Source of the DNA: Micrococcus luteus NCTC 2665
Lineage (GTDB): Bacteria; Actinomycetota; Actinomycetes; Actinomycetales; Micrococcaceae
Reading direction: 5' to 3'
Length of the DNA stretch: 32,000 bases
NCBI RefSeq assembly: GCF_000023205.1
Contig: NC_012803.1
Coordinates: 2,220,001 to 2,252,000, forward strand
The position numbers and the translations under genes were made by a program. This document shows, piece after piece, positions 4,045-18,867 of this stretch (its first letter is position 1; the number at the start of each line of letters is the position of its first letter). A model generated the notes under the pieces. The model worked only from the letters and a program-made list of their open reading frames with translations, was not told the DNA's origin and did not search any database.

Positions 4045-4123
4045 GGAGGGACTCCTGGTGCGGAAGCGAGTGCGAGGGGGCGCTCAGCCGAGGCGCGGGG
4101 CGCATGGCGAGTGCCCGACGAGT

Positions 4124-4703: not shown

Positions 4704-5247
4704 ATGCGACGGATGACGCTGCCGAGCGGGGAGTCCATCCCTGTGCTGGGCCAGGGCACCTGGGGCTGGGGTGAGGACCCCGGCCGCCGCGGCGACGAGG
4801 TCGCCGCGCTGCACGCCGGCCTCGAGCTGGGCATGACGCTGGTCGACACCGCCGAGATGTACGCCGACGGCGGCGCGGAGGAGGTGGTCGGTGAAGCATT
4901 GGCGGGTCGCCGCGACGAGGCGTTCGTGGTCAGCAAGGTCCTGCCGTCCCACGCCTCCCGTTCCGGCACGATCGCGGCCTGCGAACGCAGCCTGAAACGC
5001 CTGGGCACCGATCGGATCGACCTCTACCTGCTGCACTGGCAGGGCAGGTACCCGCTGCAGGACACCGTCGCAGCCTTCCACCAGCTCGTCGAGGACGGGA
5101 AAATCCGATACTGGGGCGTCAGCAACTTCGACCACCGGGCCCTCGCCGAGCTGCAGGACGTGCCGGGCAGCAGCGGGCTGGCCACGGATCAGGTGCTGTA
5201 CAACCTGTCGCGGCGAGGACCGGAGTACGACCTGCTGCCGTGGTGCA
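4704..5247 (+). pseudogene. Aldo/keto reductase, 5' portion, interrupted by IS insertion
   Basis: [23 protein letters not shown]...[19 protein letters not shown]...IDLYLLHW is an AKR signature. GAAGGAAG lies 8-9 nt before the ATG. Reading runs into the IS and stops after ...LLPWCK. Confidence 0.85.
5238..5247. repeat. Left copy of the target-site direct repeat CCGTGGTGCA
   Basis: Identical 10-mer at 6671-6680, immediately flanking the IS. Confidence 0.8.
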
Positions 5248-6670
5248 AGTAGTGCCCCATAGAGTGGTGTAGCGCACGGTGACTGGGCACGTCGTTCCGG
5301 ATGTGGACGCGGCCACCGTGTGATCCTTCGAGTCAACCTTCCACAGAATCCTCGAACGGAGTCATCACGATGACCGCTCCTCATATTGTCGACCCTGCCG
5401 GCCTGCTCGGCGAAGCCCTGTCCGAAGCATCCCCGGATTTGATGCGTTCGTTGCTGCAGACCGTGATCAACTCCCTGCTCTCCGCTGACGCCGACGCGGT
5501 GGTCGGCGCCGAATGGGGTAAACCCACCCCGGGCCGAGCTACCCAGCGCAACGGGTACCGGCACCGGGACCTGGACACCCGGGTCGGGACCCTGGACGTG
5601 GCGATCCCCAAACTCAGGTCGGGCACGTACTTCCCGGAGTGGCTGCTCGAGCGCCGCAAAAGGGCCGAATCCGCGCTGATCACGGTGGTCGCCGACTGCT
5701 ACCTGGCCGGGGTCTCGACCCGGCGGATGGACAAACTGGTCAAGACCCTCGGGATCAACGCGCTGTCGAAGTCCCAGGTCTCGCGGATGGCCACCGAGCT
5801 GGACGAGCAGGTCGAGTCCTTCCGTCATCGCCCGCTCGGGGAGGCTGGGCCGTTCACGTTCGTGGCCGCCGACGCGCTGAGCATGAAGGTCCGCGAGGGC
5901 GGCCGGGTGGTCAACGCCGTGGTGCTGCTGGCCACCGGGGTCAATGGTGACGGCCACCGCGAGGTCCTCGGCCTGCGGGTGGCCACCTCGGAGACGGGGT
6001 CGGCGTGGAACGAGTTCTTCGCCGACCTGGTGGCCCGGGGCCTGACCGGAGTCCGCCTGGTCACTTCCGACGCCCACACCGGGCTCAAGGACGCCATCGC
6101 CGCGAACCTGCCCGGAGCGACCTGGCAGCGGTGCCGGACCCACTACGCGGCGAACCTGATGGGCATCACCCCCAAGTCCATGTGGCCGGCCGTGAAGGCC
6201 ATGCTGCACTCGGTGTATGACCAGCCCGACGCCGCCAGCGTGGACGCCCAGTTCGACCGGCTGCTGGACTACGTCAGCGAAAAGCTGCCCGCGGTGGCCG
6301 AACACCTCGATGGTGCCCGGGCGGACATCCTGGCGTTCACCACGTTCCCCAAGGACGTGTGGACCCAGATCTGGTCGAACAACCCGGCCGAACGGCTCAA
6401 CCGCGAGATCCGGCGTCGCACCGACGCCGTGGGCATCTTCCCGAACCGGGCAGCGATCGTGCGCCTGGTCGGGGCGGTGCTGGCTGAGCAGACCGATGAG
6501 TGGGCCGAGGGCCGCCGCTACCTCGGCCTCGAGGTGTTGGCCCGCTGCCGCCTCACCACCGTGGACGACACCGAGAACGAGGTGAACGCCGAACCGGAAA
6601 CCACCCTCGAACTCAGCGCCTAACAGCACCAATGGAGGATCAGAGCGTTACACCACTACTCGGGACTTGA
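5248..6670 (+). mobile_element. Complete IS256-family insertion sequence (~1.42 kb)
   Basis: Single mutator-type transposase gene. Imperfect terminal inverted repeats share the subterminal AGTGGTGTA(G/A)CGC block (5263-5276 and the reverse complement of 6645-6658). Flanked by a 10-bp direct repeat and by the two halves of one AKR gene. Confidence 0.9.
5370..6623 (+). CDS. IS256-family (mutator-type) transposase
   Basis: MTAPHIVDPAGLLGEAL...RNGYRHRDLDTRVGTLDVAIPKLRSGTYFPEWLLERRKRAE...CRTHYAANLM...NNPAERLNREIRRRTDAVGIFPNR is the typical IS256 transposase pattern. ATG at 5370 is preceded by GAACGGAG. Confidence 0.95.
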   Translation: MTAPHIVDPAGLLGEALSEASPDLMRSLLQTVINSLLSADADAVVGAEWGKPTPGRATQRNGYRHRDLDTRVGTLDVAIPKLRSGTYFPEWLLERRKRAESALITVVADCYLAGVSTRRMDKLVKTLGINALSKSQVSRMATELDEQVESFRHRPLGEAGPFTFVAADALSMKVREGGRVVNAVVLLATGVNGDGHREVLGLRVATSETGSAWNEFFADLVARGLTGVRLVTSDAHTGLKDAIAANLPGATWQRCRTHYAANLMGITPKSMWPAVKAMLHSVYDQPDAASVDAQFDRLLDYVSEKLPAVAEHLDGARADILAFTTFPKDVWTQIWSNNPAERLNREIRRRTDAVGIFPNRAAIVRLVGAVLAEQTDEWAEGRRYLGLEVLARCRLTTVDDTENEVNAEPETTLELSA

Positions 6671-6680
6671 CCGTGGTGCA
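6671..6680. repeat. Right copy of the target-site direct repeat CCGTGGTGCA
   Basis: Identical to 5238-5247. Confidence 0.8.
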
Positions 6681-6970
6681 CCGACCACCAGCTGCCGGTC
6701 ATGGCGTACTCGCCGATCGAGCAGGGCCGCATCCTTGACGACACGACGCTGAACGACGTCGCGGCCCGTCACAGCGTCAGCCCCGCGGCGGCGGCCCTTG
6801 CCTGGGTGCTGCGCCGCGACTCGCTCTGCACGATCCCCAAGGCGAGCAGCCCGCAGCACGTGCGCGACAACGCCACAGCACTGGACGTGCAGCTGACCCG
6901 CGAAGACCTGGATGCTCTGGACCGTGCGTTTCCGCCCCCGAGCGGACCGCGACCACTGGAAATGCTGTGA
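6671..6970 (+). pseudogene. Aldo/keto reductase, 3' portion
   Basis: In-frame PWCTDHQLPVMAYSPIEQGRILDD...AALAWVLRRDSLCTIPKASSPQHVRDNA. Removing the IS plus one repeat copy restores a single 834-nt open frame. Confidence 0.85.
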
Positions 6971-7061
6971 CCCTGCCCAAGGGCGCAGCCCGGTCGGTCC
7001 GGGCGGTCCGGGCAGTCCGGGCAGCGCTCCGGTCAGCGCAAGTCTCCGAAGGACCTGCCTG

Positions 7062-7304
7062 TCACCTCCTCCTGAACCTGTGCACGCCATCCATCGACTC
7101 CTTTCCTCGAGCCCTGTCGGGTTCGCGGTAGGCGCTGATCATCCGCTGGCAGGTCCCCCAAGTGGCCTCGAGCCGGGCCCTCTGCTTGTCGGTGAGCAAC
7201 CCGGTTCCGGCGTGCAGGGTTCGACGGGCGGAGTAGAGCGGGTCGCCCGTGCGGCCGCGGTGGCCATGCAGGTCCTGCTGGACCCGGCGGTGGCAGCGGA
7301 CCAA
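7062..7304 (-). pseudogene. ISL3-family transposase fragment
   Basis: QQDLHGHRGRTGDPLYSARRTLHAGTGLLTDKQRARLEATWGTCQRMISAYREPDRARGKE matches an internal block of ISL3 transposases, with an apparent internal deletion. No N- or C-terminal parts are present. Confidence 0.65.
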
Positions 7305-7409
7305 CGCGTCGCCGGCTAACCGGACTGCGAGCGACCGGCGTTGTGGACGCAGACGACCTGGACACTGGGCCGTGCGGTCAGGAGGATCTCCAAAGTCGGC
7401 GGCGGGGGT

Positions 7410-7775
7410 TCAGGCGATGTCGAGGAAGGAACGGAGCTCGGCGAAGGCCGACGGCACGACGGAGTAGTGCGCCCAGCGGCCCTTCTGCTCGCGCGTGAGC
7501 AGGCCAGCGTCGACGAGCTTCTTCATGTGGTGACTCACGGTCGGCTGGCTGATGCCCAGCGGCTCGGTGAGATCACAGGCGCAGACCGAATTGCAGCCCT
7601 GAGCAGCGACATGGGACAGAAGCCGGAGACGGGTCGGGTCGGAAAGCGCCTTGAGCAAGGACGCGATCCTCTCGGCCTCGACGCTGTCGACGGGCCCCGC
7701 TGAGAGCGTGCAGCACTCCTCAGGGCCGTTCATCGTCTCGAGCCCGGCAGCTGTGATCGCGGTCGTCGTGGACAT
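7410..7775 (-). CDS. arsR: ArsR-family As(III)-responsive repressor (Corynebacterium ArsR1-type Cys arrangement)
   Basis: ECCTLSAGP near the N-terminus, AAQGC, and the HTH LGISQPTVSHHMKKL. Divergent from acr3. Confidence 0.9.
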   Translation of the reverse strand: MSTTTAITAAGLETMNGPEECCTLSAGPVDSVEAERIASLLKALSDPTRLRLLSHVAAQGCNSVCACDLTEPLGISQPTVSHHMKKLVDAGLLTREQKGRWAHYSVVPSAFAELRSFLDIA

Positions 7776-7789
7776 GCCCCCACCTTACA

Positions 7790-7828
7790 TTGACAGTCAT
7801 CGATGTGAAGCATAGCGTTCGCATCGAT
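7790..7828 (+). promoter_or_regulatory. Candidate acr3 promoter overlapped by an inverted repeat (putative ArsR operator)
   Basis: TTGACA (7790-7795), 17 nt, TAGCGT (7813-7818). ATCGATG (7799-7805) and CATCGAT (7822-7828) form an inverted repeat. A further TCGATG lies at 7835-7840. Confidence 0.45.
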
Positions 7829-7857
7829 ATCCGTCGATGGAAGGTTCGGCCCCCCTC

Positions 7858-8949
7858 ATGAGTACGACCACCAAGGATGTGGAGCAGCCCCGCGTGATGA
7901 AGGAGATGTCCTTCCTCGATCGCTGGCTCCCGGTGTGGATCCTGGCCGCCATGGCAGTGGGTCTCCTGCTGGGGCGGTTCATCCCCGGCCTGAACACCGC
8001 GCTGGAGGCGGTGAAGATCGGATCCGTGTCCCTGCCCATTGCGATCGGACTGTTGGTGATGATGTACCCGGTCCTGGCGAAGGTCCGCTACGACGAGACC
8101 CGGCGTATCGGCGCGGACCGACGCCTGCTGGTGACCTCGCTGGTGCTGAACTGGATCGTCGGCCCGGCACTCATGTTCGCCCTGGCCTGGATCTTCCTGG
8201 CCGACCTTCCAGAGTACCGCACCGGCCTGATCATCGTCGGACTCGCACGCTGCATCGCGATGGTCCTCATCTGGAACGACCTCGCCTGCGGTGACCGAGA
8301 AGCAGCCGCGGTGCTGGTCGCGATCAACTCCGTCTTCCAGGTGATCGCCTTCGGTGCCCTGGGCTGGTTCTACCTCCAGGCGCTGCCATCCTGGCTGGGG
8401 CTGCCGACCACGTCGGCCGAGTTCTCGATCGGCGCGATCGTCCTCAGCGTGCTGATCTTCCTCGGGATCCCGCTGGTCGCAGGGTTCCTGACCCGCATCC
8501 TCGGTGAGCGAGCCAAGGGTCGGACCTGGTACGAGGAGCGGTTCCTCCCGAAGATCGGCTCCTGGGCGCTGTACGGGCTGCTGTTCACCATCGTGCTGCT
8601 GTTCGCCCTCCAGGGCGACGCGATCATCTCCGCACCGGGGGACGTGGCCCGCATCGCCCTGCCGCTGCTGGTCTACTTCGTCGTCATGTTCCTGGGGTCC
8701 TTCCTGCTCGGCCGCGCGATCGGCCTCGACTACGCGAAGTCCACGACCGTCGCGTTCACGGCCTCGGGCAACAACTTCGAGCTCGCCATCGCCGTCGCCA
8801 TCGGCACCTTCGGAGTCACCTCCGGCCAGGCCCTCGCCGGCGTCGTCGGCCCGCTGATCGAAGTCCCCGTCCTCGTCGCCCTCGTCTACGTCGCCCTCGC
8901 TATGGGGCGGCGCCTGTTCCCCGGCGACACCACCGCCCCCACCCGATGA
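7858..8949 (+). CDS. acr3: ACR3-family arsenite efflux permease
   Basis: MSFLDRWLPVWILAAMAVGLLLGRF...LLVMMYPVLAKVRYDE...GLARCIAMVLIWNDLA is the ACR3 signature. The start is ambiguous among ATG 7837, 7858 and 7897/7906. Confidence 0.9.
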   Translation: MSTTTKDVEQPRVMKEMSFLDRWLPVWILAAMAVGLLLGRFIPGLNTALEAVKIGSVSLPIAIGLLVMMYPVLAKVRYDETRRIGADRRLLVTSLVLNWIVGPALMFALAWIFLADLPEYRTGLIIVGLARCIAMVLIWNDLACGDREAAAVLVAINSVFQVIAFGALGWFYLQALPSWLGLPTTSAEFSIGAIVLSVLIFLGIPLVAGFLTRILGERAKGRTWYEERFLPKIGSWALYGLLFTIVLLFALQGDAIISAPGDVARIALPLLVYFVVMFLGSFLLGRAIGLDYAKSTTVAFTASGNNFELAIAVAIGTFGVTSGQALAGVVGPLIEVPVLVALVYVALAMGRRLFPGDTTAPTR

Positions 8950-8972
8950 CCCCACAGAAGGATCCCCTCGCC

Positions 8973-9401
8973 ATGACCACGAAGCGCCCTTCAGTCCTGT
9001 TCGTCTGCGTGAAGAACGGCGGCAAGTCCCAGATGGCCGCCGCCCTCATGCGCCATCACGCCGGGGATGAGGTCGACGTGCATTCCGCCGGCACCCGCCC
9101 GGGCACCGCCATCAACGCCCAGTCCGCGGAGGCGATCGCCGAGGTCGGCGCGGACATGTCCTCCGCCGTCCCGCAGCCGGTCACCCCCGAGCTGCTGCGA
9201 AGCGTCGACCACGTGATCGTCATCGGCGACGAAGCCGTCATCAAACCCGTCGAGGGCATGACCGCGCCGGTCACGACCTGGCACACCGATGAGCCCTCTC
9301 AGCGCGGCATCGAAGGGATGGAGCGGATGCGCTTGGTCCGCGACGACATCGACACCCACGTCCGCAAGCTCCTGACCGACCTCACCGGCACCGCGAACTG
9401 A
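8973..9401 (+). CDS. arsC: LMW-phosphatase-type arsenate reductase
   Basis: PSVLFVCVKNGGKSQMAAALM is a P-loop-like motif. GAAGGA lies 10 nt upstream of ATG 8973. An alternative ATG at 8946 overlaps the acr3 stop. Confidence 0.85.
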   Translation: MTTKRPSVLFVCVKNGGKSQMAAALMRHHAGDEVDVHSAGTRPGTAINAQSAEAIAEVGADMSSAVPQPVTPELLRSVDHVIVIGDEAVIKPVEGMTAPVTTWHTDEPSQRGIEGMERMRLVRDDIDTHVRKLLTDLTGTAN

Positions 9402-9429
9402 CCGCCCCGCAGCAAGGAGACTCATCATC

Positions 9430-10767
9430 TTGACCACCGCAACGAACTCACATCCCATTGTCGTCATCGGCGCTGGCCCCATCGGCCTTGCCGCCGCTGC
9501 CCACCTCTCTGAGCGCGGCCTGCCGTTCCTGATCCTCGAGGCCGGGACCGCGGCAGGAGCCGCGATCGCCGAGTGGGGGCACACGCGGCTCTTCTCGCCG
9601 TGGCAGCACAACCTCGACGCCGCCGCACAGCGTCTCCTCGAAGCTGCCGGCTGGACCGCACCCGACGCCGACGTTCTCCCGACCGGTCACGAACTGCGCG
9701 AGCATTACCTCGAACCGCTCGCGCAGCTTCCCCAGCTCGCCGAGTCGATCCGCTACGGGGCGCGGGTCACCGCCGTCTCCCGCGCCGGCATCGACAAGAC
9801 CCGCACCGCACGCCGCGAGGAGACCCCCTTCCTCGTCCGGATCCAGACCACCGACGGGCACAGCGAAGACGTGCTCGCCTCCGCGGTCATCGACGCCTCC
9901 GGCACCTGGTCCACGCCCAACCCCCTCGGACAGGCCGGGCTCCTTGCTCCCGGCGAGCAGCAGGCCCGCGCCGCGGGCCACATCACCGCGCCGCTGCCTG
10001 ACGTGCAGGGCCGCGACCGTGACCGCTTCGCCGGCAAGCGAGTCATGGTGACCGGTGCCGGCCACTCAGCCGCCAATACCCTGCTGGACCTCGCGGACCT
10101 GGAGGCCGACACCACCATCATGTGGGCCGCTCGCACCGCAGACCTCACCCGCGTCTACGGGGGCGGCGACCAGGACGAACTCGCAGCCCGAGGAGCGCTC
10201 GGCTCGCGACTGCGCCAGCTGGTCGACTCCGGACGCATCGCGGTCCTCACCTCCTTCACCAGCACTCGCTTCAGAGCCGACGACACGTTGACCGTCCACG
10301 CTGTGACCCCGGACGGGGAGCGAGAAGTGAGCGTCGATGTGCTGGTGCCCGCCACCGGGTTCCGCCCTGATCTCGGAATGCTCTCCGAACTCCGCCTGGC
10401 CCTGGACCCGGCCGTCGAAGCACCGTCCCAGCTGGAGCCGCTGATCGATCCCGAGTTCCACTCCTGCGGATCCGTCGAGCCTCACGGTGAGCGAGTCCTC
10501 GCCCACCCGGAGACGAACTTCTACATCGTGGGGATGAAGAGCTACGGCCGCGCCCCCACCTTCCTCATGGCCACCGGCTACGAACAGGTCCGCTCCATCG
10601 CAGCAGCCCTGGCCGGCGACCGCAAAGCAGCCGACGCAGTCCACCTCGAACTACCCGAGACCGGCGTATGCACCACCGACCTCGGCGGCGGCTGCGACGC
10701 CCCAGCCACAGCCGGCGACGCCTGCTGCAGCAGCCCGCAACTGATCGAGCTCCCCGTCGGCCGATGA
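9430..10767 (+). CDS. FAD/NAD(P)-binding oxidoreductase linked to the ars operon (ArsO-like), with a Cys-rich C-terminal tail
   Basis: TTG start 10 nt after AAGGAG (9414-9419). Two dinucleotide-binding motifs (VVIGAGPIGLAAA; VMVTGAGHSAANT). The tail is GVCTTDLGGGCDAPATAGDACCSSP. Confidence 0.8.
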   Translation: MTTATNSHPIVVIGAGPIGLAAAAHLSERGLPFLILEAGTAAGAAIAEWGHTRLFSPWQHNLDAAAQRLLEAAGWTAPDADVLPTGHELREHYLEPLAQLPQLAESIRYGARVTAVSRAGIDKTRTARREETPFLVRIQTTDGHSEDVLASAVIDASGTWSTPNPLGQAGLLAPGEQQARAAGHITAPLPDVQGRDRDRFAGKRVMVTGAGHSAANTLLDLADLEADTTIMWAARTADLTRVYGGGDQDELAARGALGSRLRQLVDSGRIAVLTSFTSTRFRADDTLTVHAVTPDGEREVSVDVLVPATGFRPDLGMLSELRLALDPAVEAPSQLEPLIDPEFHSCGSVEPHGERVLAHPETNFYIVGMKSYGRAPTFLMATGYEQVRSIAAALAGDRKAADAVHLELPETGVCTTDLGGGCDAPATAGDACCSSPQLIELPVGR

Positions 10768-10774
10768 GCAAACA

Positions 10775-10806
10775 GCGGGACGGCACGACGTTCTGTGCCG
10801 CCCCGC
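10775..10806 (+). terminator. Candidate terminator hairpin after the ars flavoprotein gene
   Basis: GCGGGACGGCAC-GACGTTCT-GTGCCGCCCCGC is an imperfect GC-rich stem just after the stop at 10767. No U-tract. Confidence 0.4.
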
Positions 10807-10830
10807 TGGGGTATAGCTTTACGAGGCGAC

Positions 10831-10862
10831 ACTGTAAGTTCAGCTCATACTGTATAGTTCAG
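10831..10862 (+). promoter_or_regulatory. Tandem ACTGTA(T)AGTTCAG motifs plus TATAGT -10 directly before cmtR
   Basis: ACTGTAAGTTCAG (10831-10843) and ACTGTATAGTTCAG (10849-10862) lie in an AT-rich island. TATAGT (10853-10858) is 7 nt from ATG 10866, which suggests a leaderless transcript. Confidence 0.45.
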
Positions 10863-10865
10863 TGA

Positions 10866-11225
10866 ATGCTGACTATCGCCTCTCGTGTTGATGTGATGAA
10901 CCGGTTGGGCCGAGCGATGGCCGACCCCACCCGGTCGCGGATCCTGATGACCTTGCTGGAACGGCCGGCGTACCCGGCCGAACTAGCGCGAGACTTGGGG
11001 CTGACCCGGTCGAACGTGTCGAACCACCTGGCGTGCTTGCGGGACTGCGGGATCGCGGTCGCCGTGGCCGAGGGCCGCCAGACCCGATACGAGATCGCCG
11101 ATGCACACCTGGCGCGGGCGCTGACTGCTCTGGTCGAGGTCACCCTCGCGGTGGATGAGAGTGCTCCGTGCATCGATCCCGCCTGCTCGCTTCCCGGATG
11201 CGACGCAGCTGGGGAGGGCGCATGA
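10866..11225 (+). CDS. cmtR: CmtR-type ArsR/SmtB-family Cd/Pb-responsive repressor
   Basis: Very close to the M. tuberculosis CmtR pattern: LGRAMADPTRSRIL...GLTRSNVSNHLACLRDCGI...GRQTRYEIADAHLARAL...APC. The sensing Cys pair C-x3-C is on the alpha-4 helix, with further C-terminal Cys residues. Confidence 0.9.
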   Translation: MLTIASRVDVMNRLGRAMADPTRSRILMTLLERPAYPAELARDLGLTRSNVSNHLACLRDCGIAVAVAEGRQTRYEIADAHLARALTALVEVTLAVDESAPCIDPACSLPGCDAAGEGA

Positions 11226-11824
11226 GCCTCACCTCGGTCTTGCAGGCGATGGGCCTGTTCGCAGCGACCAACATCGACGACATCATCGTGCTCTCCCTCT
11301 TCTTCGCGCGAGGGGCAGGCCAGCGCGGCACTACCGCCCGCATTCTGGCCGGCCAGTACCTCGGATTCGCCGGCATCCTCGGTGCCGCGGTCCTGGTGAC
11401 CATCGGCGCCGGAGCATTCCTGCCCCCGGCAGCCATCCCGTACTTCGGCCTCATCCCTCTGGGCCTCGGCCTCTGGGCCGCATGGCAGGCCTGGCGCGGA
11501 GACGATGACGACGATGACGACGAGGCCAAGGTTGCCGGCAAGAAGGTCGGCGTGTGGACAGTCGCAGGCGTCACCCTTGCCAACGGCGGCGACAACATCG
11601 GCGTCTACACCCCTCTCTTCCTCAGCGTGGAACCTCTCGCAGTAGTCGCCTACTGCATCGTCTTCCTCGCGCTCGTCGCGGTCCTGGTGGCCCTGGCAAA
11701 GTTCGTCGCCACCCGCCCCCCGATCGCCGAAGTGCTCGAACGCTGGGAGAACATCCTCTTCCCCATCGTTCTCATCGGCCTCGGCATCGTGATCCTCGTC
11801 AGCGGCGGAGCCTTCGGACTCTGA
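11222..11824 (+). CDS. cadD: CadD-family cadmium resistance transporter
   Basis: ATG 11222 overlaps the cmtR stop (ATGA). FAATNIDDIIVLSLFF...TLANGGDNIGVYTPLF are the two CadD-type repeats. A central DDDDDDDE loop is present. Confidence 0.85.
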   Translation: MSLTSVLQAMGLFAATNIDDIIVLSLFFARGAGQRGTTARILAGQYLGFAGILGAAVLVTIGAGAFLPPAAIPYFGLIPLGLGLWAAWQAWRGDDDDDDDEAKVAGKKVGVWTVAGVTLANGGDNIGVYTPLFLSVEPLAVVAYCIVFLALVAVLVALAKFVATRPPIAEVLERWENILFPIVLIGLGIVILVSGGAFGL

Positions 11825-12137
11825 CGTAGCGGCAGCGATCCAAACGGCCCCGACCGGGCGCACCCCTCTCGGTTCAGACCGCGACACCTACCTGCAGCCA
11901 GTCCTGCGTGATCGCGGCAACAAGACCGCCACGGAGCGCTGCAAAAACCCCGCCACCAAGCGAACGAAGCCACAGGGCAGGGCGTGTAAAGGGGTATACC
12001 CGCGTGGACGTGGGTCAAGAACACTCCGTGCGACCACGCAGCCCTGTCCGAAGCGCCCGCATCCCCTCAAGAATGGCGAGGCACATTCTCGCCACGGCGC
12101 TTGCCAGGTAGATGCGGACCCGTACAGGGACAGACGA

Positions 12138-12171
12138 CACGGGCCCGCCTGCCGGAGCAGACGGGCCCGTG
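12138..12171 (-). terminator. Terminator hairpin downstream of the Mn catalase gene
   Basis: Perfect 10-bp stem CACGGGCCCG (12138-12147) / CGGGCCCGTG (12162-12171) with a 14-nt loop, 25 nt after the stop. Confidence 0.55.
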
Positions 12172-12195
12172 CACTCCCTCATCGGGAAGGTCAGG

Positions 12196-13065
12196 TCACT
12201 CGCGGTGCAGCTTGTCCTGCACCGTGCCCGCCAGCTTCTCGACGCGGTTGGGCACCTCCGTGGTCCCGTAGAAACGGGAGTCCGGGTGGGTGGGCGGGGG
12301 CATGGGGACCCCCGCCGGCGGCTCGGACGAGTAGGAGAACTCGCCCTTGCCGTCCGGGGTGGGGCCTGCAGCCCACGAACCCTCCGCAGTGGCCTGACCG
12401 TCAGAGAACTCATAGTGCGTGTACGAGTGCTCCGTGGCCTCCTTCTTCTGCGGGAAGTTGCTCGGCACCGGCATCTCCTCCAGGCCGTCCTCCTGCAGCT
12501 CCTTCACAGCCGCCGCCCACTGGTTCTGGTGCATCGTGTCCCGGGCCAGCAAGAAGGAGAGCAGCTCCCGGATGCCCGGGTCATCGGTCATGTGATAGAG
12601 CCGGGCCACCTGGGTCCGCCCCTGCATCTCCGCGTTGAGGTTGGCGGTCATGTCGGCCAGCAGGTTGCCGCTGGCCGTGACATACGCTCCGGTCCACGGA
12701 TTCCCCATGCTGTCCACGGGGCGAGCACCGGCACCGGCCACGATGGCCTGCTGCAGATCGGTGCCCCCGATGACGGCGGCCACGGCCGGGTCATCCTGGA
12801 TGGCGTCGGTGGTGATCCCCACCGGGGCCTTCTCCAGCAGCTGGGCCACCATCGTTGCCAGCATCTCGACGTGACCGAACTCCTCGGCCGCCGTGCTGAA
12901 GAGCAGGTCCCGGTACTTGCCCGGAATGTGGGCGTTCCATGCCTGGAAGCTGTACTGCATGGCCACGGTGATCTCGCCGTACTGCCCGCCGATCACCTCC
13001 TGCAGCTTGCGGGCGTAGACCGCGTCAGGCTTCTCAGGACTGGAGACGTGCTGAAGCTTCTGCAT
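12196..13065 (-). CDS. Manganese (non-haem) catalase
   Basis: YARKLQEVIGGQYGEITVAMQYSFQAWN...AAEEFGHVEMLATMV is the di-Mn catalase signature. Confidence 0.9.
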   Translation of the reverse strand: MQKLQHVSSPEKPDAVYARKLQEVIGGQYGEITVAMQYSFQAWNAHIPGKYRDLLFSTAAEEFGHVEMLATMVAQLLEKAPVGITTDAIQDDPAVAAVIGGTDLQQAIVAGAGARPVDSMGNPWTGAYVTASGNLLADMTANLNAEMQGRTQVARLYHMTDDPGIRELLSFLLARDTMHQNQWAAAVKELQEDGLEEMPVPSNFPQKKEATEHSYTHYEFSDGQATAEGSWAAGPTPDGKGEFSYSSEPPAGVPMPPPTHPDSRFYGTTEVPNRVEKLAGTVQDKLHRE

Positions 13066-13147
13066 TGTGGATGTACAAGAGAGGACTCCCCTCGATCAAG
13101 TCGGATGCGTGAAGGCCCGAGGGGCTCCACGCCGGACAGCATCGACG

Positions 13148-13174
13148 CTACGCGGGTCTGACCGACCCGTGTAG
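13148..13174. promoter_or_regulatory. Inverted repeat upstream of the catalase gene
   Basis: CTACGCGGGTC (13148-13158) / GACCCGTGTAG (13164-13174), 11 bp with one mismatch and a 5-nt spacer, about 85-110 nt upstream of the catalase start. Confidence 0.25.
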
Positions 13175-13306
13175 TGCTGACCCACGCCGGAACTGCATCG
13201 GTCACCACCCGCGCCATGGACGCCAGCCCCACTCGGGGGGTGAGCGCTTTCGCCATCCTCCGCCTGCGGATGCGGCGGGTAGGTGACTCTCAGAGGCACG
13301 CGGCTT

Positions 13307-13326
13307 AAACGGTCGTTATCTGGAGT
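13307..13326 (+). repeat. Left inverted repeat AAACGGTCGTTATCTGGAGT
   Basis: Reverse complement of 17882-17901 with one mismatch; the 15-nt core is perfect. Confidence 0.8.
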
Positions 13327-13431
13327 CTGGTCAGAGGTGCCCATGACGTCCAGCACGAGGCTCAGCGGATCGGAGGTCTTCCTGGTGGACGCAGTTATCT
13401 TGGGGCCGTCTATGAAGCGGCTCGGACTCCG

Positions 13432-13821
13432 TTACCGCTCTTGGTTCGATATCCGTAGTCGCCCGAGGGCGTGTTCCAACTGTTTCCGGAGTCGCTGGTT
13501 CTCGGCGGTGAGGTCACTGACGCGCGCATTGGCAACTTCGAGGCGGCGTATCAGGGATGCATCGGTGGAACGTTGAGACGCGGGCAGCGGTACGCCGCCG
13601 GCTACTTGCCGGAGGTCGCGGAGTCGTCGGACCTCGGAGCAGAGGTCGTCCTGGGTGTAGAGCCAGGATCGCGAGACTTGCGCCTTCTCCGCGACGATCT
13701 GGAAGGTGACCGTGCCGCCCTCGCGGTCGAGGTCGCGAAGGGCCTGGGTTGCTTTGGCGCGGGTCGTCTCGTGACGTCGCTGGGCAGCGACGATCAGATG
13801 ATGGCTGTTATCGGCGTGCAT
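13432..13821 (-). CDS. Small TnpC-like / DUF6262-like protein
   Basis: MHADNSHHLIVAAQRRHETTRAKATQALRDLDREGGTVTFQIVAEKAQVSRSWLYTQDDL... ATG 13821 overlaps the upstream stop (ATGA). Its size (129 aa) and position match Tn554 tnpC. Confidence 0.75.
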   Translation of the reverse strand: MHADNSHHLIVAAQRRHETTRAKATQALRDLDREGGTVTFQIVAEKAQVSRSWLYTQDDLCSEVRRLRDLRQVAGGVPLPASQRSTDASLIRRLEVANARVSDLTAENQRLRKQLEHALGRLRISNQER

Positions 13822-15296
13822 CAGGTGCTTGCCTCGCCGTCCTGGTCGTCCTCCAACGTGCTGATGATCTGGTCGAGGTTTCCCAGGACCTGCTGGTTCA
13901 TCTCGATGAGTCGTTGCTGGCCGCGGGCTTCGGCAGCGGTGATGATCTGCACGACCTGCCGGCGGTGCTGGCGGTGCTCGGGTAGGAACTCGGAGGTGGT
14001 GATGAACATTGGGCAGCTCAGGCATGCGTTCGCGTGCGGGCAGGATTGCTGGACCGGCAGCCCGCAGAAGCCGTTGGGCAGGGCCTGGGTCGCGCGTCCG
14101 ACGCGCTGCTTGGCCCAGGCCGCCTCGGCCAAGGGTCCGTCCGGGTCGAGGGTGACCGTCTCGCCCTTGATGTTGACCTTCCGCGCGGCTTCCCAGTGCC
14201 GGCGGATCGTGGTGTCACTGAGGCGGGCGTAGTGGGCGGTCATGACGTGGGAGTCGTGGTCGAGAATCCGCCGGACCACTTCTTGGGGGACATCACGGTT
14301 GATCAGCCTGGTGCCCAGGGTGTGCCGGAAGCTGTGCGGGACGACGCGAACGGGGCGCCCGTGCTCGTCACGGATATCGCAGCGCTTGAGCCAGCTGTGC
14401 AGCGCCTTGCGGTAGACCCCGTCCCCGACCGACTCCTGGCCGTCGTCGTTGTCCGTGACTCGCGGGAAGAGCACCGGCTCCCCGCCCGGCCACCGCTCGT
14501 GCACACGGCGACGCTGCGCAGTGATGGCTTCGGCGAGGTCGGCGTCGATGGGCACCAGGGCTTCGCGTTTCATCTTGTGGTTGAGGTAGCGCAGGTAGGG
14601 CGCTCCCTCGCCGTCGTAGACGATGCAGTCGGTCGGCAGACGGACGGTGTCGGTGATGCGCAGCCCGCAGCCCATCAGGATCAGCGTGATCAGCTCATAG
14701 GCGGCGTTGTTCCACTTGGCGAGGTTGTCCGGGTTCTCCAGCTGAGCCATCACGGTTTCGCTCAGCGCGCGCGGTTGCCGGATGGCCTCCTTGGGGAAGT
14801 CCTCGCTGAAGAACATCACCGTCGAAGGCAGGGAATCGTCCCAGCCGTGCTGCCGGATGGTGGTGAAGAACAGGTTCAGCTGGCCGATCAACATGCGGTG
14901 CTTCACGGTGCCCGAGAACCGGGCGTGCAGGTGCGCGAGGTAGCGCTCCAGCAGGTCCCGGTCCAGGTCTGCCAGCCCCTGGACGGAGGGTGCCACGTCC
15001 GCGAGGAACTGCCCGAAGTGCGCGATCGCCCGGGTGCCCGAGGAGACGCTGACCACCCCGAGGCCCGTGGCCAGGCGCCAGCGGGCCCAGCGTTTGGCCA
15101 AGGCTTTGAGCCAGGGCTGCGGGATGTCCTCGAAGGTGATCCGGGCCAGCCGTCTGTCCTTGATGCCAAGTTCACGCAGCCGCCAGACGTCCTTGCCGTA
15201 CTCAGCATCCCAGCTGTTGGTCTGAAGGGACGTTCGGCGCCGCTCACGCCCGGCCCTTGATGGCTGTTCGGGCGCCAGCGGGCTCGGCGCACTCAC
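13821..15296 (-). CDS. Tyrosine recombinase, Tn554 TnpB-like
   Basis: GLRITD, HSFRHT, LDHDS and HYARL are catalytic-type motifs. C-terminal Cys cluster CGLPVQQSCPHANACLSCP. GTG 15296 overlaps the tnpA-like stop (GTGA). The longer tracked ORF extension overlaps the upstream gene and was not used. Confidence 0.85.
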   Translation of the reverse strand: MSAPSPLAPEQPSRAGRERRRTSLQTNSWDAEYGKDVWRLRELGIKDRRLARITFEDIPQPWLKALAKRWARWRLATGLGVVSVSSGTRAIAHFGQFLADVAPSVQGLADLDRDLLERYLAHLHARFSGTVKHRMLIGQLNLFFTTIRQHGWDDSLPSTVMFFSEDFPKEAIRQPRALSETVMAQLENPDNLAKWNNAAYELITLILMGCGLRITDTVRLPTDCIVYDGEGAPYLRYLNHKMKREALVPIDADLAEAITAQRRRVHERWPGGEPVLFPRVTDNDDGQESVGDGVYRKALHSWLKRCDIRDEHGRPVRVVPHSFRHTLGTRLINRDVPQEVVRRILDHDSHVMTAHYARLSDTTIRRHWEAARKVNIKGETVTLDPDGPLAEAAWAKQRVGRATQALPNGFCGLPVQQSCPHANACLSCPMFITTSEFLPEHRQHRRQVVQIITAAEARGQQRLIEMNQQVLGNLDQIISTLEDDQDGEAST

Positions 15297-16480
15297 AGTC
15301 GCACCTCTCGGCCGGTGAACCAACCCGCTTCCTCCAGCGCCTTGCGAGCGTCCTCGGCGCTCAGGTGCCCGTAGACGGCGGTGGTGGTGGTGATGTCGGC
15401 GTGGCCGAGGAGCTTGGAGACCACCTCGATCGGCACACCGTCGCGCAGCATCCGGGTCGCGGCGGTGTGGCGGTACCAGTGCGGGTCGAAGTCGATCCCG
15501 GTGCGCCGCCGCAGACGCTTGACCAGGTCGTAGACGGCCGTGTAGGTCAGCGGGTGACCGTGGGGTCGGCCCCAGAGGTTGACGAAGACGTAGTCGGAGT
15601 CTAGATCGTCGTACTCCAGGTGAAGGTAGTCGGCGTAGAGCCGGACCAGCTCCGCGCTGACCGGCACCGTCCGCGGTGCGCATGACTTGGAGCGGGCACC
15701 GTTGTCATTGACCCGGCGCTGGACCGTGATCTGGGACTCGGCAGCGGCAATGTCCTCATGCCGCAGCCCCAGCGCCTCACCGATCCGCATCCCGGTGTCG
15801 AACAGCACCGCGAACAAGAACCGGTCCCGCAGATGATCACAGGCATCGAGGATCGTCTGCACCTCGGCGGCGGAGAGCACGCGCGGGAGCTTGCTCTGCG
15901 CGCTCAGCACGATGGCCCGCCGAGCCTGCGGTTTGCCCTTGCTGATGTGGTGCAAGAACGGCTTCCACCCCGAGCCACGACCTCCGGCCGGCTGCCACGC
16001 CCTGAGCAGCTCTCCGAGGTCGACGCCGTGGCGCGCGGCGTGCTGGTAGAACGCGCTGAGCGCGGAGAGTTTCCGGTTGACCGTGGACTCAGTGCAGTGG
16101 TGCTCCACCGACGGCAACACCGGTACCGTCCCGTCGCGCAGCTGCGGCGGTCGGCGTAGCCAGGCGACGAACTCGGCGACGTTCTCCAATCGCACCTCAC
16201 GCCAGCCAAGGCCTTGGACGCCGAGGAACACGAACCAGTCCTTCAAGTCGTGAGCGTAGGCCTTAACCGTGTTCGACGACCGCTCGATCTGGGTCAAGTA
16301 CGCCAGATACCGCTCGATCGGAGCCACCGGGGCACCGTCATCACCCAGCACCGTCCACGACTCCACGGCATCGACCGGGGAGAGCACCCGCTGAACGAGT
16401 AAGCCCCGGTCCGTGCGGCTGCACGCGTCGTTTCGTAGTGTCAGCCCCCGACTGCCCAATGAAGATTGGGCGTCCTGCAT
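15293..16480 (-). CDS. Tyrosine recombinase, Tn554 TnpA-like
   Basis: SAM-like N-terminal domain (IERYLAYLTQIERSSNTVKAYAHDL), then GMRIGEAL, HWYRHT, LLGHADI and YGHL. ATG 16480 overlaps the SDR stop. An alternative TTG lies at 16510. Confidence 0.85.
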   Translation of the reverse strand: MQDAQSSLGSRGLTLRNDACSRTDRGLLVQRVLSPVDAVESWTVLGDDGAPVAPIERYLAYLTQIERSSNTVKAYAHDLKDWFVFLGVQGLGWREVRLENVAEFVAWLRRPPQLRDGTVPVLPSVEHHCTESTVNRKLSALSAFYQHAARHGVDLGELLRAWQPAGGRGSGWKPFLHHISKGKPQARRAIVLSAQSKLPRVLSAAEVQTILDACDHLRDRFLFAVLFDTGMRIGEALGLRHEDIAAAESQITVQRRVNDNGARSKSCAPRTVPVSAELVRLYADYLHLEYDDLDSDYVFVNLWGRPHGHPLTYTAVYDLVKRLRRRTGIDFDPHWYRHTAATRMLRDGVPIEVVSKLLGHADITTTTAVYGHLSAEDARKALEEAGWFTGREVRL

Positions 16481-17235
16481 CAGCTCGACGTATCGACCGT
16501 GTGGAGCCAAGCGTCAACATCCGGCCCGAGGACGGTGGCGTTGTCGGGAGCCAGGAGAACTCCCTCTGACAGCGCCGGCAGCGCAGGAGCGGTGACGCGG
16601 ACGGGGCGTGCGTCACCGAGCCGGTTCAGCAGCTTGGTCGTGAGCTCGGGCAACCGCACCACCTCTGGCCCGGTGACCGTCCTGGTCGCTGTGCCTGCGC
16701 GCCCCAGCGCAGCCTCGACCAGAACATCAGCAACTGCATCGGCAGCCACGGGCTGAACGAGCCAGTCCTCTACCCGAACCTCATCGTCCTCGAACGTGGT
16801 GGCCGATGGGTTGGTAGCGAACTCGTGCCACTGGGTGGACTTCACAACTGTCGACGGGACATCGCTGGCGGCCACGATTTCGTCTTGGGCGCGCTTGGCG
16901 AGGTAGTAGGGAAAGTCGTCGAAGACGGGATTGTCGACTCCACTGATGGATAAGAACACGAGGTGTCCGACCTGCTGGGCGGCACACGCTTCGACGACGT
17001 TGCGCGTAGCCGAAGTGAGGGCCTCGTGCAGGCCGACAGTCTCATCCGGCGGGAAAGCGTTGGAGGCGTCGATCGCGACGTCGACTCCTTCCAGCGCCTC
17101 GCGCAGGCCTTCCCCGGTGATCAGGTCCACCCCGGTAGCGCGTGAGACCTCAACGGGGCTGATGCCCCGGTCTTTGAGCTTGGCGACGGTGCGGGAGCCG
17201 GCGGTTCCCGTCGCTCCGATGACAGCGATCTTCAT
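16480..17235 (-). CDS. NmrA-like / atypical SDR NAD(P)H-binding protein
   Basis: MKIAVIGATGTAGSRTV is a Rossmann motif. 251 aa. ATG 17235 overlaps the Rrf2 stop (ATGA). Confidence 0.85.
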   Translation of the reverse strand: MKIAVIGATGTAGSRTVAKLKDRGISPVEVSRATGVDLITGEGLREALEGVDVAIDASNAFPPDETVGLHEALTSATRNVVEACAAQQVGHLVFLSISGVDNPVFDDFPYYLAKRAQDEIVAASDVPSTVVKSTQWHEFATNPSATTFEDDEVRVEDWLVQPVAADAVADVLVEAALGRAGTATRTVTGPEVVRLPELTTKLLNRLGDARPVRVTAPALPALSEGVLLAPDNATVLGPDVDAWLHTVDTSS

Positions 17236-17732
17236 GGTTGATGCTCTCCTTCTGGATGCTTGCGGTCGATGAACTCGGACAGTTGCTGACGGCTGTGGGC
17301 ATCGACACCGGCGGCCAGGTCAGTGATCGAAACCTGGGACAAGCTGGACCGCCAGGCGTCTTCGGCTTGTCTCATGGCTGAGGCGATGCGGCAGGGACCG
17401 CTGGCCTTGATCTCAGCCGAGCGTTCCTTGAACAACCCCTGACACCTAATCTCGGTGCAGCGGAAAATCGGACCGCGACCATCGAGGGCGTCAACGACGT
17501 CAGCCAGGGTGATCTCCTGGGCTGGGCGTGCCAACGCGAAACCTCCGGCTTGACCGGGAGTAGAGGTCACCAGGCCGTTAGCGGCCAGCTTCTGAAGGTG
17601 CTTGTTCAGGTATGTCGGGGACAGCCCGTACGCCTCGGCCAGTGCTGCGCTCGGCACCGGTTGGGTCGATCCGAACTGTTCCAGCACCACCAGGCAGTGG
17701 GCCGTCCACTCCACACCGTTCGGCAACTGCAT
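17232..17732 (-). CDS. Rrf2-family transcriptional regulator with three Cys
   Basis: MQLPNGVEWTAHCLVVLE...LAEAYGLSPTYLNKHLQKLAANGLV is a winged helix. The Cys cluster is FRCTEIRCQG...GPCRI. ATG 17732 is preferred over GTG 17741. Confidence 0.85.
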   Translation of the reverse strand: MQLPNGVEWTAHCLVVLEQFGSTQPVPSAALAEAYGLSPTYLNKHLQKLAANGLVTSTPGQAGGFALARPAQEITLADVVDALDGRGPIFRCTEIRCQGLFKERSAEIKASGPCRIASAMRQAEDAWRSSLSQVSITDLAAGVDAHSRQQLSEFIDRKHPEGEHQP

Positions 17733-17749
17733 ACTCAACACGCTACACC

Positions 17750-17774
17750 ATTCTGGATAGAGGATGTCCAGGAT
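17750..17774. promoter_or_regulatory. Inverted repeat just upstream of the Rrf2 gene (candidate operator)
   Basis: ATTCTGGA-TAGAGGATG-TCCAGGAT, 8-bp arms with one mismatch, starting 18 nt from ATG 17732. Confidence 0.35.
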
Positions 17775-17881
17775 GCTGACGTGCCCCGATCAGACGGTTC
17801 GTACTGCTGGCTCCAGCCTCACGACGTGGACGCCGGTCTACGACACGAAGCGGCAGGTCAGGGACTATTTCCTGCCGACGC

Positions 17882-17901
17882 ACTCTAGATAACGACCGTT
17901 T
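17882..17901 (-). repeat. Right inverted repeat ACTCTAGATAACGACCGTTT
   Basis: Reverse complement of 13307-13326 with one mismatch. Confidence 0.8.
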
Positions 17902-18091
17902 GTGGCACGCGCCCCAGATGTCTCCGGCAGTCTCCCCACGTCGCCTGCTAGGCGGTGTGACTTGCGCCGATGAATGTCCGGTATCTCGCACAGATCGCTG
18001 TCCGGCATAACCTCAGCTGGAGAAGTTGGGGCGGGTGAGTTGTTGCCCTCCGCCCTGGTGTCGGAACCGCATCATGCCGGATCGTGGGCGC

Positions 18092-18457
18092 ATGAGAGTG
18101 ACAGTCCGTGGAAACCGCTTGGTGAGCCTAGGGGCTCGAATCACTGTCGACGTCCCTGAGGGTCCGACGCCAGAGGTGCGGATTCACGCGCCGTTCTGCA
18201 GGCGAGCGATTCCCGTCTCGGAGATCTCCGACATCACTTCAGCCAGTGATGACGGCATGAACCACGGACTCCTCAACTGGTTCGTCACGGGCCGCGCTTC
18301 AGCCCCCGGCGGGGTCCGCATCAACAACGGCGGTCGGGCCCGCGTCACGATCCGGACCCGTGACGGGTCGCTCTTCAACGTCGTAGTGGACGATCACGAC
18401 CAGGCGAGCCGCCTGGTTGAGGATGTCCGGTCGATCAGAGCACGCTCATCCGGCTAA
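18092..18457 (+). CDS. Hypothetical protein
   Basis: Open frame with plausible composition (MRVTVRGNRLVSLGARITVDVP...RVTIRTRDGSLFNVVVDDHDQASRLVEDV). No family recognised. Start is ATG 18092 or 18074. Its stop TAA lies inside repeat copy C. Confidence 0.45.
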   Translation: MRVTVRGNRLVSLGARITVDVPEGPTPEVRIHAPFCRRAIPVSEISDITSASDDGMNHGLLNWFVTGRASAPGGVRINNGGRARVTIRTRDGSLFNVVVDDHDQASRLVEDVRSIRARSSG

Positions 18458-18468
18458 ATCGGTCGTTA
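18435..18468 (+). repeat. Third, direct-orientation partial copy of the element-end motif
   Basis: CGGCTAAATCGGTCGTTA (18451-18468) versus CGGCTTAAACGGTCGTTA (13301-13318), 16 of 18 by my count. Both are preceded by TCAGAG(G)CACGC. Confidence 0.6.
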
Positions 18469-18867
18469 GTGACGAGGGGCCCCGCCATGCGCCGTGTGCG
18501 CCACCTCCGGCCCTGCCCGCCCGCCGCACGGCTCGCCACAACCAACCCGCTAGAGCGGCAGCCGTCCGTACGTTTCGAGCGAGCCCTGGGGTGCGCGGGG
18601 GCGCCCACCTGGACACCCAGTGTCACGCCGACCGGATCCCGCCCGATACGCGAAGAGTCCACCGCGCGTCGTGTGGAACCTTGCCTGCATCTCGACAGCA
18701 AAGGCCCTTGCCCACCGATCCGCATCGTGACACAGTTCACCCCATGATGCAGCAGCAGTGACGCCGTGGGTCCGACGACCCACCACCGGCCTCCCCGCGC
18801 GCCCGTCTCGAGCACGGCTCGACGGGTGCCTCTGCGCCCACCCCTTTCTTCAGAAAGCAGTCACCGC

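Follow-up and report, generated by a model that had tools for sequence, protein, structure and literature searches.

A probable Tn554-related transposon with an Rrf2 regulator and an SDR-like protein as passengers in Micrococcus luteus NCTC 2665

The locus and its genes

In Micrococcus luteus NCTC 2665 the genes for an Rrf2-family regulator and a short-chain dehydrogenase/reductase (SDR)-like protein stand in front of the recombination genes of a Tn554-like transposon and overlap them, which raises the question of how a redox regulator and an oxidoreductase-like protein came to be joined to transposition genes. The locus lies in a stretch of 32,000 nucleotides (NC_012803.1, positions 2,220,001 to 2,252,000), here called the window, whose numbering is used throughout. 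The reading proposed here, with a probability of about 85%, is that 13308-17900 forms one M. luteus transposon of 4,593 bp, from the Tn554-related family of actinobacteria, and that the Rrf2 and SDR genes are its passengers. On this reading the regulator and SDR overlap the recombinases because they are transposon passengers. The element belongs to a known transposon family and varies a known type by carrying passengers; it is not a new regulatory system.

The recombinase trio was already catalogued in this strain in 2012. Table 2 of Van Houdt et al. 2012 (Mob DNA 3:6; PMC3414803) lists M. luteus NCTC 2665 with two Tn554-like tnpABC copies, and the searched passages of that paper hold no description of ends, target or passenger genes. 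New here are the exact ends, the core with its empty site, a slot upstream of tnpA that takes six types of cargo module, and the repeated shift of the tnpA start. They add anatomy to a family that, going by the same passages, was earlier known mainly as recombinase pairs, and they define a natural trio of attL, attR and attB whose 10-bp core is palindromic. Being small and having a defined empty site, the element may serve for the study of Tn554-type transposition in a Micrococcus that is tractable and non-pathogenic.

The five genes are as a preliminary description of this DNA had proposed. Five consecutive co-oriented open reading frames (ORFs) occupy 13432-17741 of the minus strand in the ORF listing of the window, and the identities given to them (Rrf2, NAD(P)-binding SDR, two recombinases and a small protein) are borne out by Pfam. 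The regulator matches Rrf2 (E 1e-31), as it does in NCBIfam, the SDR-like protein matches NAD_binding_10 (PF13460, E 2e-13), TnpA matches Phage_integrase plus a SAM-like N-domain (E 2e-36), and TnpB matches Phage_integrase (E 9e-18). The third gene of the recombination module does encode 129 amino acids (aa), and its product matches DUF6262 (E 1e-9). By exact look-up the five proteins are ACS31539-ACS31543 of M. luteus NCTC 2665. Every junction had been described as a 4-bp overlap. This holds for Rrf2/SDR (ATGA, 17235-17232) and TnpA/TnpB (GTGA, 15296-15293), whereas the junctions SDR/'TnpA' ORF (16482-16478) and TnpB/TnpC (13823-13819) are TGATG with a 1-base overlap. Stop/start overlaps are common in high-G+C operons. 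Rfam and tRNA searches gave no match. The parts of the element, from its left end to its right end, are listed below.

17882-17900, minus strand: left terminal inverted repeat (IRL), reading AACGGTCGTTATCTAGAGT on the minus strand; identified by inverted-repeat scan, motif search, homology to locus L085 and the empty-site junction
17776-17881, minus strand: left-end backbone, non-coding, with the motif GTCGTAGAC..GTCCAC; common to sister elements with other cargo
17753-17771, no strand assigned: palindrome CTGGATAGAGGATGTCCAG, predicted operator of the RsrR-like regulator, within the captured cargo and 22-40 nt upstream of the Rrf2 ATG
17232-17732, minus strand: Rrf2-family regulator of RsrR type, cargo gene 1, 166 aa; Pfam and match to PDB 6HSD
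16480-17235, minus strand: NAD(P)-binding SDR-like protein, cargo gene 2, 251 aa, PF13460; Pfam and 251-aa homologues
16403-16479, minus strand: spacer from SDR to the conserved tnpA start, consisting of SDR 3' flank to about 16444 and then a decayed tnpA ribosome-binding site (RBS) region; open in the tnpA frame
15293-16402, minus strand: tnpA, tyrosine recombinase, 369 codons from the family-conserved start position (TTA here); Pfam and alignments
13821-15296, minus strand: tnpB, second tyrosine recombinase, 491 aa, CPHANACLSCP cluster; Pfam and homology to Enterococcus TnpB
13432-13821, minus strand: tnpC, DUF6262 protein, 129 aa; Pfam, with Enterococcus TnpC in the same family
13308-13431, minus strand: right end with the right terminal inverted repeat (IRR) ACTCCAGATAACGACCGTT at 13326-13308; relatives' homology stop and empty site

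Ends of the element and the empty site

The ends are marked by terminal inverted repeats and by the limits of homology to relatives. A genome-collection scan with TnpA gave 491 relatives, of which the best 80 were fetched and compared by tblastn with all five proteins. IRL and IRR form the longest inverted repeat within 13200-18000, perfect over 14 nt and imperfect over 19 nt (AACGGTCGTTATCT). Since IRL, at 17900-17882, lies upstream of the Rrf2 gene, the element is 13308-17900 and has both Rrf2 and SDR inside it. From left to right it consists of a left end of about 125 bp, the passenger module, tnpA-tnpB-tnpC and a right end of 124 bp. The outer 10 nt of IRL, AACGGTCGTT, are the attL copy of the recombination core and the outer 10 nt of IRR, AACGACCGTT, are the attR core; the right end also has an inner AGATAAC copy at 13394-13400. 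DNA homology with six relatives (including L001, L003, L005, L006 and L088) ends at 13308-13314. At the other end, window 17901-17804 aligns with the left end of L006 at 72%, and a further alignment of the left-end backbone includes L085, L086, L005 and L001. In locus L085, a sequencing-run contig, 88% identity to the window sets in at precisely 17900 and extends across Rrf2, SDR and spacer and on into tnpA; the upstream flank of L085, with a gene for a 220-aa GNAT protein, is unlike that of the window.

The decisive evidence is an unoccupied site in assembly GCA_023147175.1 (L110), an M. luteus genome that is 99.7% identical to the window and lacks the five-gene block; LS483396.1 is 99.98% identical to the window over 16.9 kb. 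The attB site of L110 joins window 17940-17901 to 13307-13268 through a single AACGACCGTT, and because 40/40 nt match on each side, the five-gene block is one insertion. As the empty site joins both flanks at a single core, the Rrf2 and SDR genes came with the recombinases as cargo. The junctions read ...gtgccaca/AACGGTCGTTATCT at attL, AGATAACGACCGTT/taagccgcg... at attR and ...gtgccaca/AACGACCGTT/taagccgcg... at attB. The insertion site is a 10-bp near-palindromic core, AACGNNCGTT, which the unoccupied site has in single copy. Only this core is common to attL, attR and attB, there is no flanking target duplication, and the central dinucleotide of the core is GT in attL and AC in attR and attB. 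The direct repeat GGCACGCG (13295-13302 and 17904-17911) was considered as a target duplication and rejected, since the empty site shows it to be part of the uninterrupted target.

The same observations bear on the simplest alternative, in which an element consisting of tnpABC only inserted directly after an Rrf2-SDR operon already resident there and produced the overlap incidentally. It would agree with the DNA homology of the closest relatives, which begins only at 16399, with the abundance of cargo-less relatives of about 4 kb, and with the full length of the SDR gene. This alternative is nevertheless very improbable. The left repeat at 17900 is upstream of Rrf2, L085 has the unit IRL-Rrf2-SDR-tnpA in another flank, and the empty site in L110, which refutes a resident operon, is without Rrf2 and SDR as well as tnpABC.

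Relationship to Tn554 and other elements

The recombination module belongs to the Tn554 family by gene order, homology and manner of insertion. The order tnpA-tnpB-tnpC is present in nearly all of the best 80 relatives, many of which are stand-alone contigs of about 4 kb. Small stand-alone contigs are a usual sign of a repeated mobile element. The closest relatives, in Brachybacterium, Citricoccus, Brevibacterium, Nesterenkonia and Dietzia, have 79-92% DNA identity, and their homology to the window is confined to 16396-16399 through 13308-13314. As a comparator from the Tn554 family, tblastn against plasmids provided Enterococcus faecium CP040238.1, where tnpA-tnpB-tnpC-araC-optrA adjoins radC and TnpA, TnpB and TnpC have 361, 630 and 125 aa. 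The window proteins are 37% (TnpA, E 1e-69) and 33% (TnpB, E 1e-73) identical to those of Enterococcus. The two TnpC proteins have no BLAST match to each other, but both match DUF6262, the Enterococcus protein with E 8e-15. The catalytic residues R206/H308/R311/H334/Y344 of TnpA and R213/H321/R324/H347/Y356 of TnpB align with those of the Enterococcus proteins, and the CPHANACLxC cluster is invariant in the two TnpB sequences. These alignments confirm that both recombinases keep the R...HxxR...H...Y residues and that the second has a CPHANACLSCP-type Cys cluster, while gene order, homology and DUF6262 uphold the Tn554 layout that had been proposed from the sequence. The window thus has adjacent, co-oriented tnpA and tnpB genes with the R-H-R-Y residues and a small tnpC after them. 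When attL, attR and attB are compared, no duplication of the target is seen, and the crossover holds a short sequence that varies. As for target specificity, the element lies outside radC, and the flanks of clade members differ beyond a core like AACGNNCGTT.

The element resembles the classical members of the family in its recombination genes and differs in its cargo. Tn554, Tn558, Tn6674 and the optrA elements of Staphylococcus and Enterococcus have the order tnpA-tnpB-tnpC with overlapping genes, as in the window, and the M-x-V-Q-R N-terminus of TnpA and the CPHANACLxC of TnpB are conserved in common. The terminal repeats of Tn554 are imperfect, it makes no target duplication and its footprint measures 6 bp; its family shares with the window element the imperfect inverted termini, the lack of target duplication and a short variable crossover sequence (PMC10214605). 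By analogy, the footprint features of Tn554 would fit the variable central dinucleotide of the window core. The transposition route of Tn554 is described as unresolved (PMC10214605). In the Tn554 family the cargo is a drug-resistance gene downstream of tnpC, whereas the window cargo, a redox regulator and an oxidoreductase-like protein, lies ahead of tnpA, in the interval from the left end to the tnpA RBS. TnpB has 630 aa in the Tn554 family and 491 aa in the window. Tn554 uses att554 in radC, whereas the window target is the 10-bp AACGNNCGTT core in an intergenic position.

Two other groups are related to the window element. It belongs to the same family as the actinobacterial Tn554-related transposons of PMC3414803; the searched passages of that paper define the family by recombinase pairs and stress an 'abnormally long' recombinase, whereas the window clade has the short 491-aa form. 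Integrative elements of the strand-biased circularizing type and GInts, both from Proteobacteria, also have two tyrosine recombinases and a TnpC-like protein at one end, imperfect terminal repeats of 13-19 bp, target specificity and a short footprint (PMC10214605). Unlike them, the window element has no Tfp/CDS2 counterpart (PMC10214605), and its cargo flanks the recombinase genes on the opposite side.

A cargo slot upstream of tnpA

Sister elements show that the position occupied by Rrf2 and SDR is a slot for different cargo. This slot lies just upstream of the tnpA RBS, and five other regulator-plus-effector modules are found there.

L001: TetR and MFS
L002 and L005: LysR and malate:quinone oxidoreductase (Mqo)
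L006 and L117-L126: MerR/TipAS, amidohydrolase-HEAT and a 143-aa ORF
L003 and L004: WYL regulator, ABC transporter and NmrA-like protein
L088 (Kocuria rosea plasmid NZ_CP127860.1): two-component system and ABC transporter, with perfect repeats 6.8 kb apart

The cargo travels with the element, as the same cargo recurs in separate places. L002 and L005 are in different genera and have 82% identity, and the flanks of L006 and L117 differ. The tnpA-proximal gene is co-oriented with tnpA in 6/6 cargo types, that of the window included, and in 4/6 cargo lineages the native RBS and start survive, together with a spacer of 60-180 nt. The preliminary description had offered, as one possibility, that the regulator and SDR are fixed cargo. 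They are cargo, as they lie inside the repeats and are missing together with tnpABC from the empty site, but they are not fixed: neither Rrf2 nor SDR was found by tblastn in any of the best 80 tnpA loci (0 of 80), and the sister elements hold the five other modules in the slot. A sharp boundary between cargo and backbone at tnpA codon 2, as a site-specific cassette mechanism would produce, was also considered. This idea was softened, since several members share the upstream sequence CCGCACGGAG..CTGATG, so the junctions lie 10-25 nt upstream and differ by lineage.

Some of the sister loci have features of their own. L002, a 5974-bp contig of Citricoccus sp. NPDC055426, is an entire LysR and Mqo transposon that starts inside the left repeat and ends inside the right one, which points to multiple copies in that genome, or to a circular form. 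A left repeat at position 631 of this contig is spurious, as the contig itself begins inside the repeat. The L088 transposon (locus 1453-2214 and 2264-9092, 6.8 kb) is separated by 50 bp from a gene for an erm 23S rRNA methyltransferase, immediately beyond the left repeat, and a serine recombinase and a TnpV gene are on its other side. The element of L117-L126 sits inside a gene for a PRD-domain (BglG-type) antiterminator. Its 143-aa ORF (L006 9582-10013, L117 6573-7004) is conserved, has no Pfam match and overlaps the amidohydrolase stop by 4 nt. In L026, L035 and L062, tnpB is interrupted by a second, more distant tnpA/tnpB pair, and these look like nested Tn554-like insertions.

The captured regulator and SDR

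The window regulator is predicted to be a [2Fe-2S] redox sensor of the RsrR type with an operator of its own. Its closest solved homologue is RsrR of Streptomyces venezuelae (PDB 6HSD, E 1.5e-36 over 147 aa), and the start at ATG 17732 agrees with the N-terminus of that protein. In the phmmer alignment E8, H12 and the cysteines of FxCTEIR and xxCxIA are aligned with 6HSD, at the places of the [2Fe-2S] ligands of RsrR. The putative operator at 17753-17771 is the sole exact match in the window, where 0.22 matches with two or fewer mismatches are expected by chance, and it is conserved in L085, in L086 and in L082, which has no transposon. The types of cluster ligand in RsrR are described in PMC8204329. 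DNA binding by RsrR is strongest in the oxidised state, and the nmrA-like gene beside it is the principal target (PMC5015018). In its layout (11-3-11) and its core (GGATA/TGTCC) the palindrome of the window agrees with the RsrR class 1 sites and probes (PMC5015018). A weak second operator-like palindrome with 2 mismatches is at 18609-18627.

The SDR-like protein has an N-terminal Rossmann fold, to judge from PF13460 and the GxxGxxG motif GATGTAG at residues 7-13. It is full length, as many 251-aa homologues cover 100% of it. PF05368 (NmrA) is not matched by the window protein, though it is recorded for some homologues, and the best solved relative is SimC7 (E 2e-4). The pair resembles RsrR and nmrA of S. 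venezuelae, which also have an adjacent NAD(P)-binding partner gene and an upstream palindromic operator (PMC5015018; 6HSD). The S. venezuelae partner is a divergent LysR-NmrA fusion, whereas that of the window is a stand-alone 251-aa PF13460 protein, encoded downstream and apparently co-transcribed, and the window pair, unlike that of S. venezuelae, is borne by a transposon.

The two genes also exist apart from the recombinases. Rrf2-SDR pairs without recombinases immediately downstream are found in L082 and L086, and the SDR gene alone occurs in Brachybacterium sacelli and in five other contexts. In L082 and L086 the pair has the same SDR 3' end with no recombinase genes directly after it, and the conserved tnpA start lies elsewhere; the preliminary description had named both observations as ones that would refute its reading. 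The transposon-free L082 aligns with the window over 17775-16479 only, and the homology of B. sacelli, likewise transposon-free, reaches 16444. From these limits the captured piece is taken to be the predicted operator, Rrf2, SDR and 36-80 nt of SDR 3' flank. In scans of metagenomes, an exact 34-mer across the SDR/tnpA spacer had 0 matches, and a protein-seeded search with the SDR found no close relatives. The L086 contig (1-1378) begins in sequence homologous to the left-end backbone (window 17853 onward) and carries Rrf2 and SDR, followed after the SDR stop by genes for HxlR and a flavodoxin-like reductase and by no tnpA. This short contig may be from a larger cargo array or a rearranged element.

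The start of tnpA and the overlap with SDR

The family start of tnpA is not at the SDR overlap, where the preliminary description had placed it. In relatives the tnpA start corresponds to window 16402-16400: a GGAGG-type RBS precedes an ATG (or TTG), after which the protein reads x-V-Q-R-V, and the M-x-V-Q-R N-terminus is conserved as far as the Enterococcus TnpA. In the window the codon at this position is TTA (TTG in L085), and the native RBS is degraded, with GGAC for GGAG. The overlap ATG at 16480 is 26-27 codons upstream, and the frame between the two is open; by a calculation made by hand, the chance of a stop-free, in-frame stretch of 26 codons at 65% G+C is about 0.17. The candidate starts are ATG 16480 (395 aa) and GTG 16387 (364 aa), and public annotations use both. 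Judged from the reading frame, the window TnpA must start at the coupled ATG 16480 with 26-27 extra residues, or start at GTG 16387 and lose V-Q-R, or be impaired. A TnpA that retains the invariant V-Q-R would therefore start at or near ATG 16480.

The overlap itself was brought in with the cargo. It had been called hard to explain by chance insertion, but the sequence after the SDR stop, TGATGCAGGA, is also present in two loci without recombinases or transposon, L084 and L087, and this indicates that the overlap ATG was imported with the SDR 3' flank. When L085 is set against the window, 7 nonsynonymous changes and 1 synonymous change are seen in extension codons 2-26 (counted by hand), so the 26-codon extension is not a conserved coding region; from the conserved tnpA start onward the changes are synonymous. 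A similar relocation is seen in the MerR/amidohydrolase lineage, where CTA replaces the conserved tnpA ATG and the gene begins four codons further upstream, at an ATGA overlap with the 143-aa ORF (at 7001 in L117).

Proposed mechanism and control of the recombinases

Transposition may proceed as proposed for Tn554. TnpA and TnpB, aided by TnpC, would excise the element, or copy it, into circular form; the joining of its ends would give the palindrome AGATAACGNNCGTTATCT, with a joint reading AGATAACG-NN-CGTTATCT. The circle would then recombine with matching cores, of the type CACAAACGACCGTTTAAG, without target duplication. The tnpABC genes have no evident promoter downstream of the cargo, and read-through that begins at the left end and the cargo promoter probably accounts for their transcription. 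This is suggested because the gene strand has no terminator-like site, the hairpin in the spacer lacks a U-run, and the proximal gene points towards tnpA in 6/6 cargo types. The hairpin, GCCCAAT-CTTC-ATTGGGC at 16454-16471, was rejected as a terminator, as it is indistinguishable from shuffled sequence (z -1.8) and has no U-tail. A promoter and terminator scan was uninformative: the one promoter-like site and the one terminator-like site that it gave both lie opposite the gene strand. Should tnpABC be driven by read-through from the cargo promoter, the elements would illustrate how mobility can become dependent on a signal through the capture of cargo, and the oxidised RsrR-like repressor could incidentally lower transposase expression as a consequence of capture.

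Such control could instead have been selected, which would make the locus a five-gene operon in which the RsrR-like sensor controls the transposase and the coupling to the SDR stop is the working tnpA start. More broadly, the clade might capture passengers into the transposase leader and so wire the transposase to the cargo sensor; transposition in M. luteus would then be repressed by the oxidised [2Fe-2S] regulator and released on reduction or loss of the cluster. All genes are co-oriented with no terminator-like site on their strand, and the sole operator match precedes the whole string. Furthermore, although native RBS and start are lost, the frame is open to the coupled ATG in both the window and L085, and the V-Q-R N-terminus is kept only by a start at or above extension codon 8. 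Two patterns would mark selection: the tnpA start moved onto the last cargo stop in two independent lineages, the window's and that of L006 and L117-L126, and the co-orientation of the proximal gene in 6/6 types. However, the ATG pre-exists in the SDR loci L084 and L087, the 7 to 1 ratio of changes shows no constraint on the extension as protein, and 4/6 lineages keep spacer, native RBS and start. The cargo regulators are also of unrelated kinds, so no common signal is implied. Selected redox control, in the single operon and in the clade-wide form alike, is therefore considered unlikely, and the passenger transposon is retained as the explanation of the locus.

Second copy and activity of the element

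The genome has a second copy of tnpABC, and it is damaged. This copy (L114, LS483396.1 1757638-1774576) is 96% identical to the window from the equivalent of 16243 to the right repeat, and an IS3-family element truncates it at the 5' end. Neither a left end nor cargo was found within 8 kb of it. L114 adjoins IS5-like copies and a gene for a TraG/TrwB-type coupling protein, and for this reason it is probably in the remnant of a conjugative element.

The state of the two copies raises the possibility that the window element is dead or dying, its tnpA start lost and its overlaps without function, and that Rrf2-SDR is an ordinary chromosomal redox module. The TTA at the conserved start, the change of the RBS from GGAG to GGAC and the truncated second copy agree with this. 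Moreover, three sequences with 98-99.98% identity to the window, namely L108, L109 and the metagenome contig L081, carry the identical insertion at the identical place, and new insertion sites within the species were not seen. On the other side, tnpA, tnpB and tnpC are intact, with 90-94% amino acid identity to relatives and all catalytic residues present, near-identical genomes are polymorphic for insertion and empty site, and an in-frame ATG is available. Decay is a doubtful reading that nevertheless deserves some weight.

Several points weigh against the 4,593-bp passenger transposon as it is presented here. The element may be inactive in this strain, since the conserved tnpA start and RBS are degraded and the second copy is cut by IS3. 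The difference between GT and AC in the central dinucleotide fits a heteroduplex or footprint model by inference alone. The outer left repeat was not found in L003, which has the inner left-end motif only, and the 7-bp hairpin after the SDR stop could reduce read-through. Finally, the left flank of L110 matches the window for 59 nt and then diverges, and the contig ends about 120 nt further on.

To the left of the common 59 nt, L110 1-120 is unrelated to window 17960-18760, and another rearrangement or insertion is possible there. In the window this side has a 143-aa ORF without a Pfam match at 18026-18457.

Cargo-less relatives and neighbouring DNA

Cargo-less relatives of about 4 kb sit inside genes of IS256-family transposases (Transposase_mut) in L013, L014, L015, L017, L018, L027, L030, L035, L037 and L041. 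The insertion is always at one codon, near residue 362/363 of the IS256-family protein of the window (5301-6623), and in either orientation. Both halves of the split gene are seen in L013 and L030. The flanks read ...ATCTACACCACCAA / element / TCGCTGAACTACCAG, around the CGATCG core common to the element ends. From the single codon and this core it follows that the cargo-less transposon targets a conserved motif of another transposase gene. A literature search found no report of a Tn554-like element that targets an IS256-family transposase motif.

The DNA next to the window element is also of mixed origin in appearance. The G+C content of the window is 0.74-0.76, while a stretch at about 4500-18500 is lower, and this stretch (0.63-0.69 vs 0.74) looks like a mosaic island. 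Within it, an IS256-family insertion at about 5247-6670 (transposase ORF 5301-6623) interrupts an aldo/keto reductase gene, the 5' part of which is at 4704-5252. In L110 the 277-aa reductase is uninterrupted, and a 9-nt overlap of the two alignment blocks there suggests that the target was duplicated. Adjoining the transposon is a cluster for metals and oxidative stress (7837-13065), which consists of the following genes.

7837-8949: ACR3-type arsenite carrier
8946-9401: low-molecular-weight phosphatase-type ArsC
9430-10767: flavoprotein oxidoreductase
10866-11225: ArsR
11168-11824: CadD
12196-13065: Mn catalase

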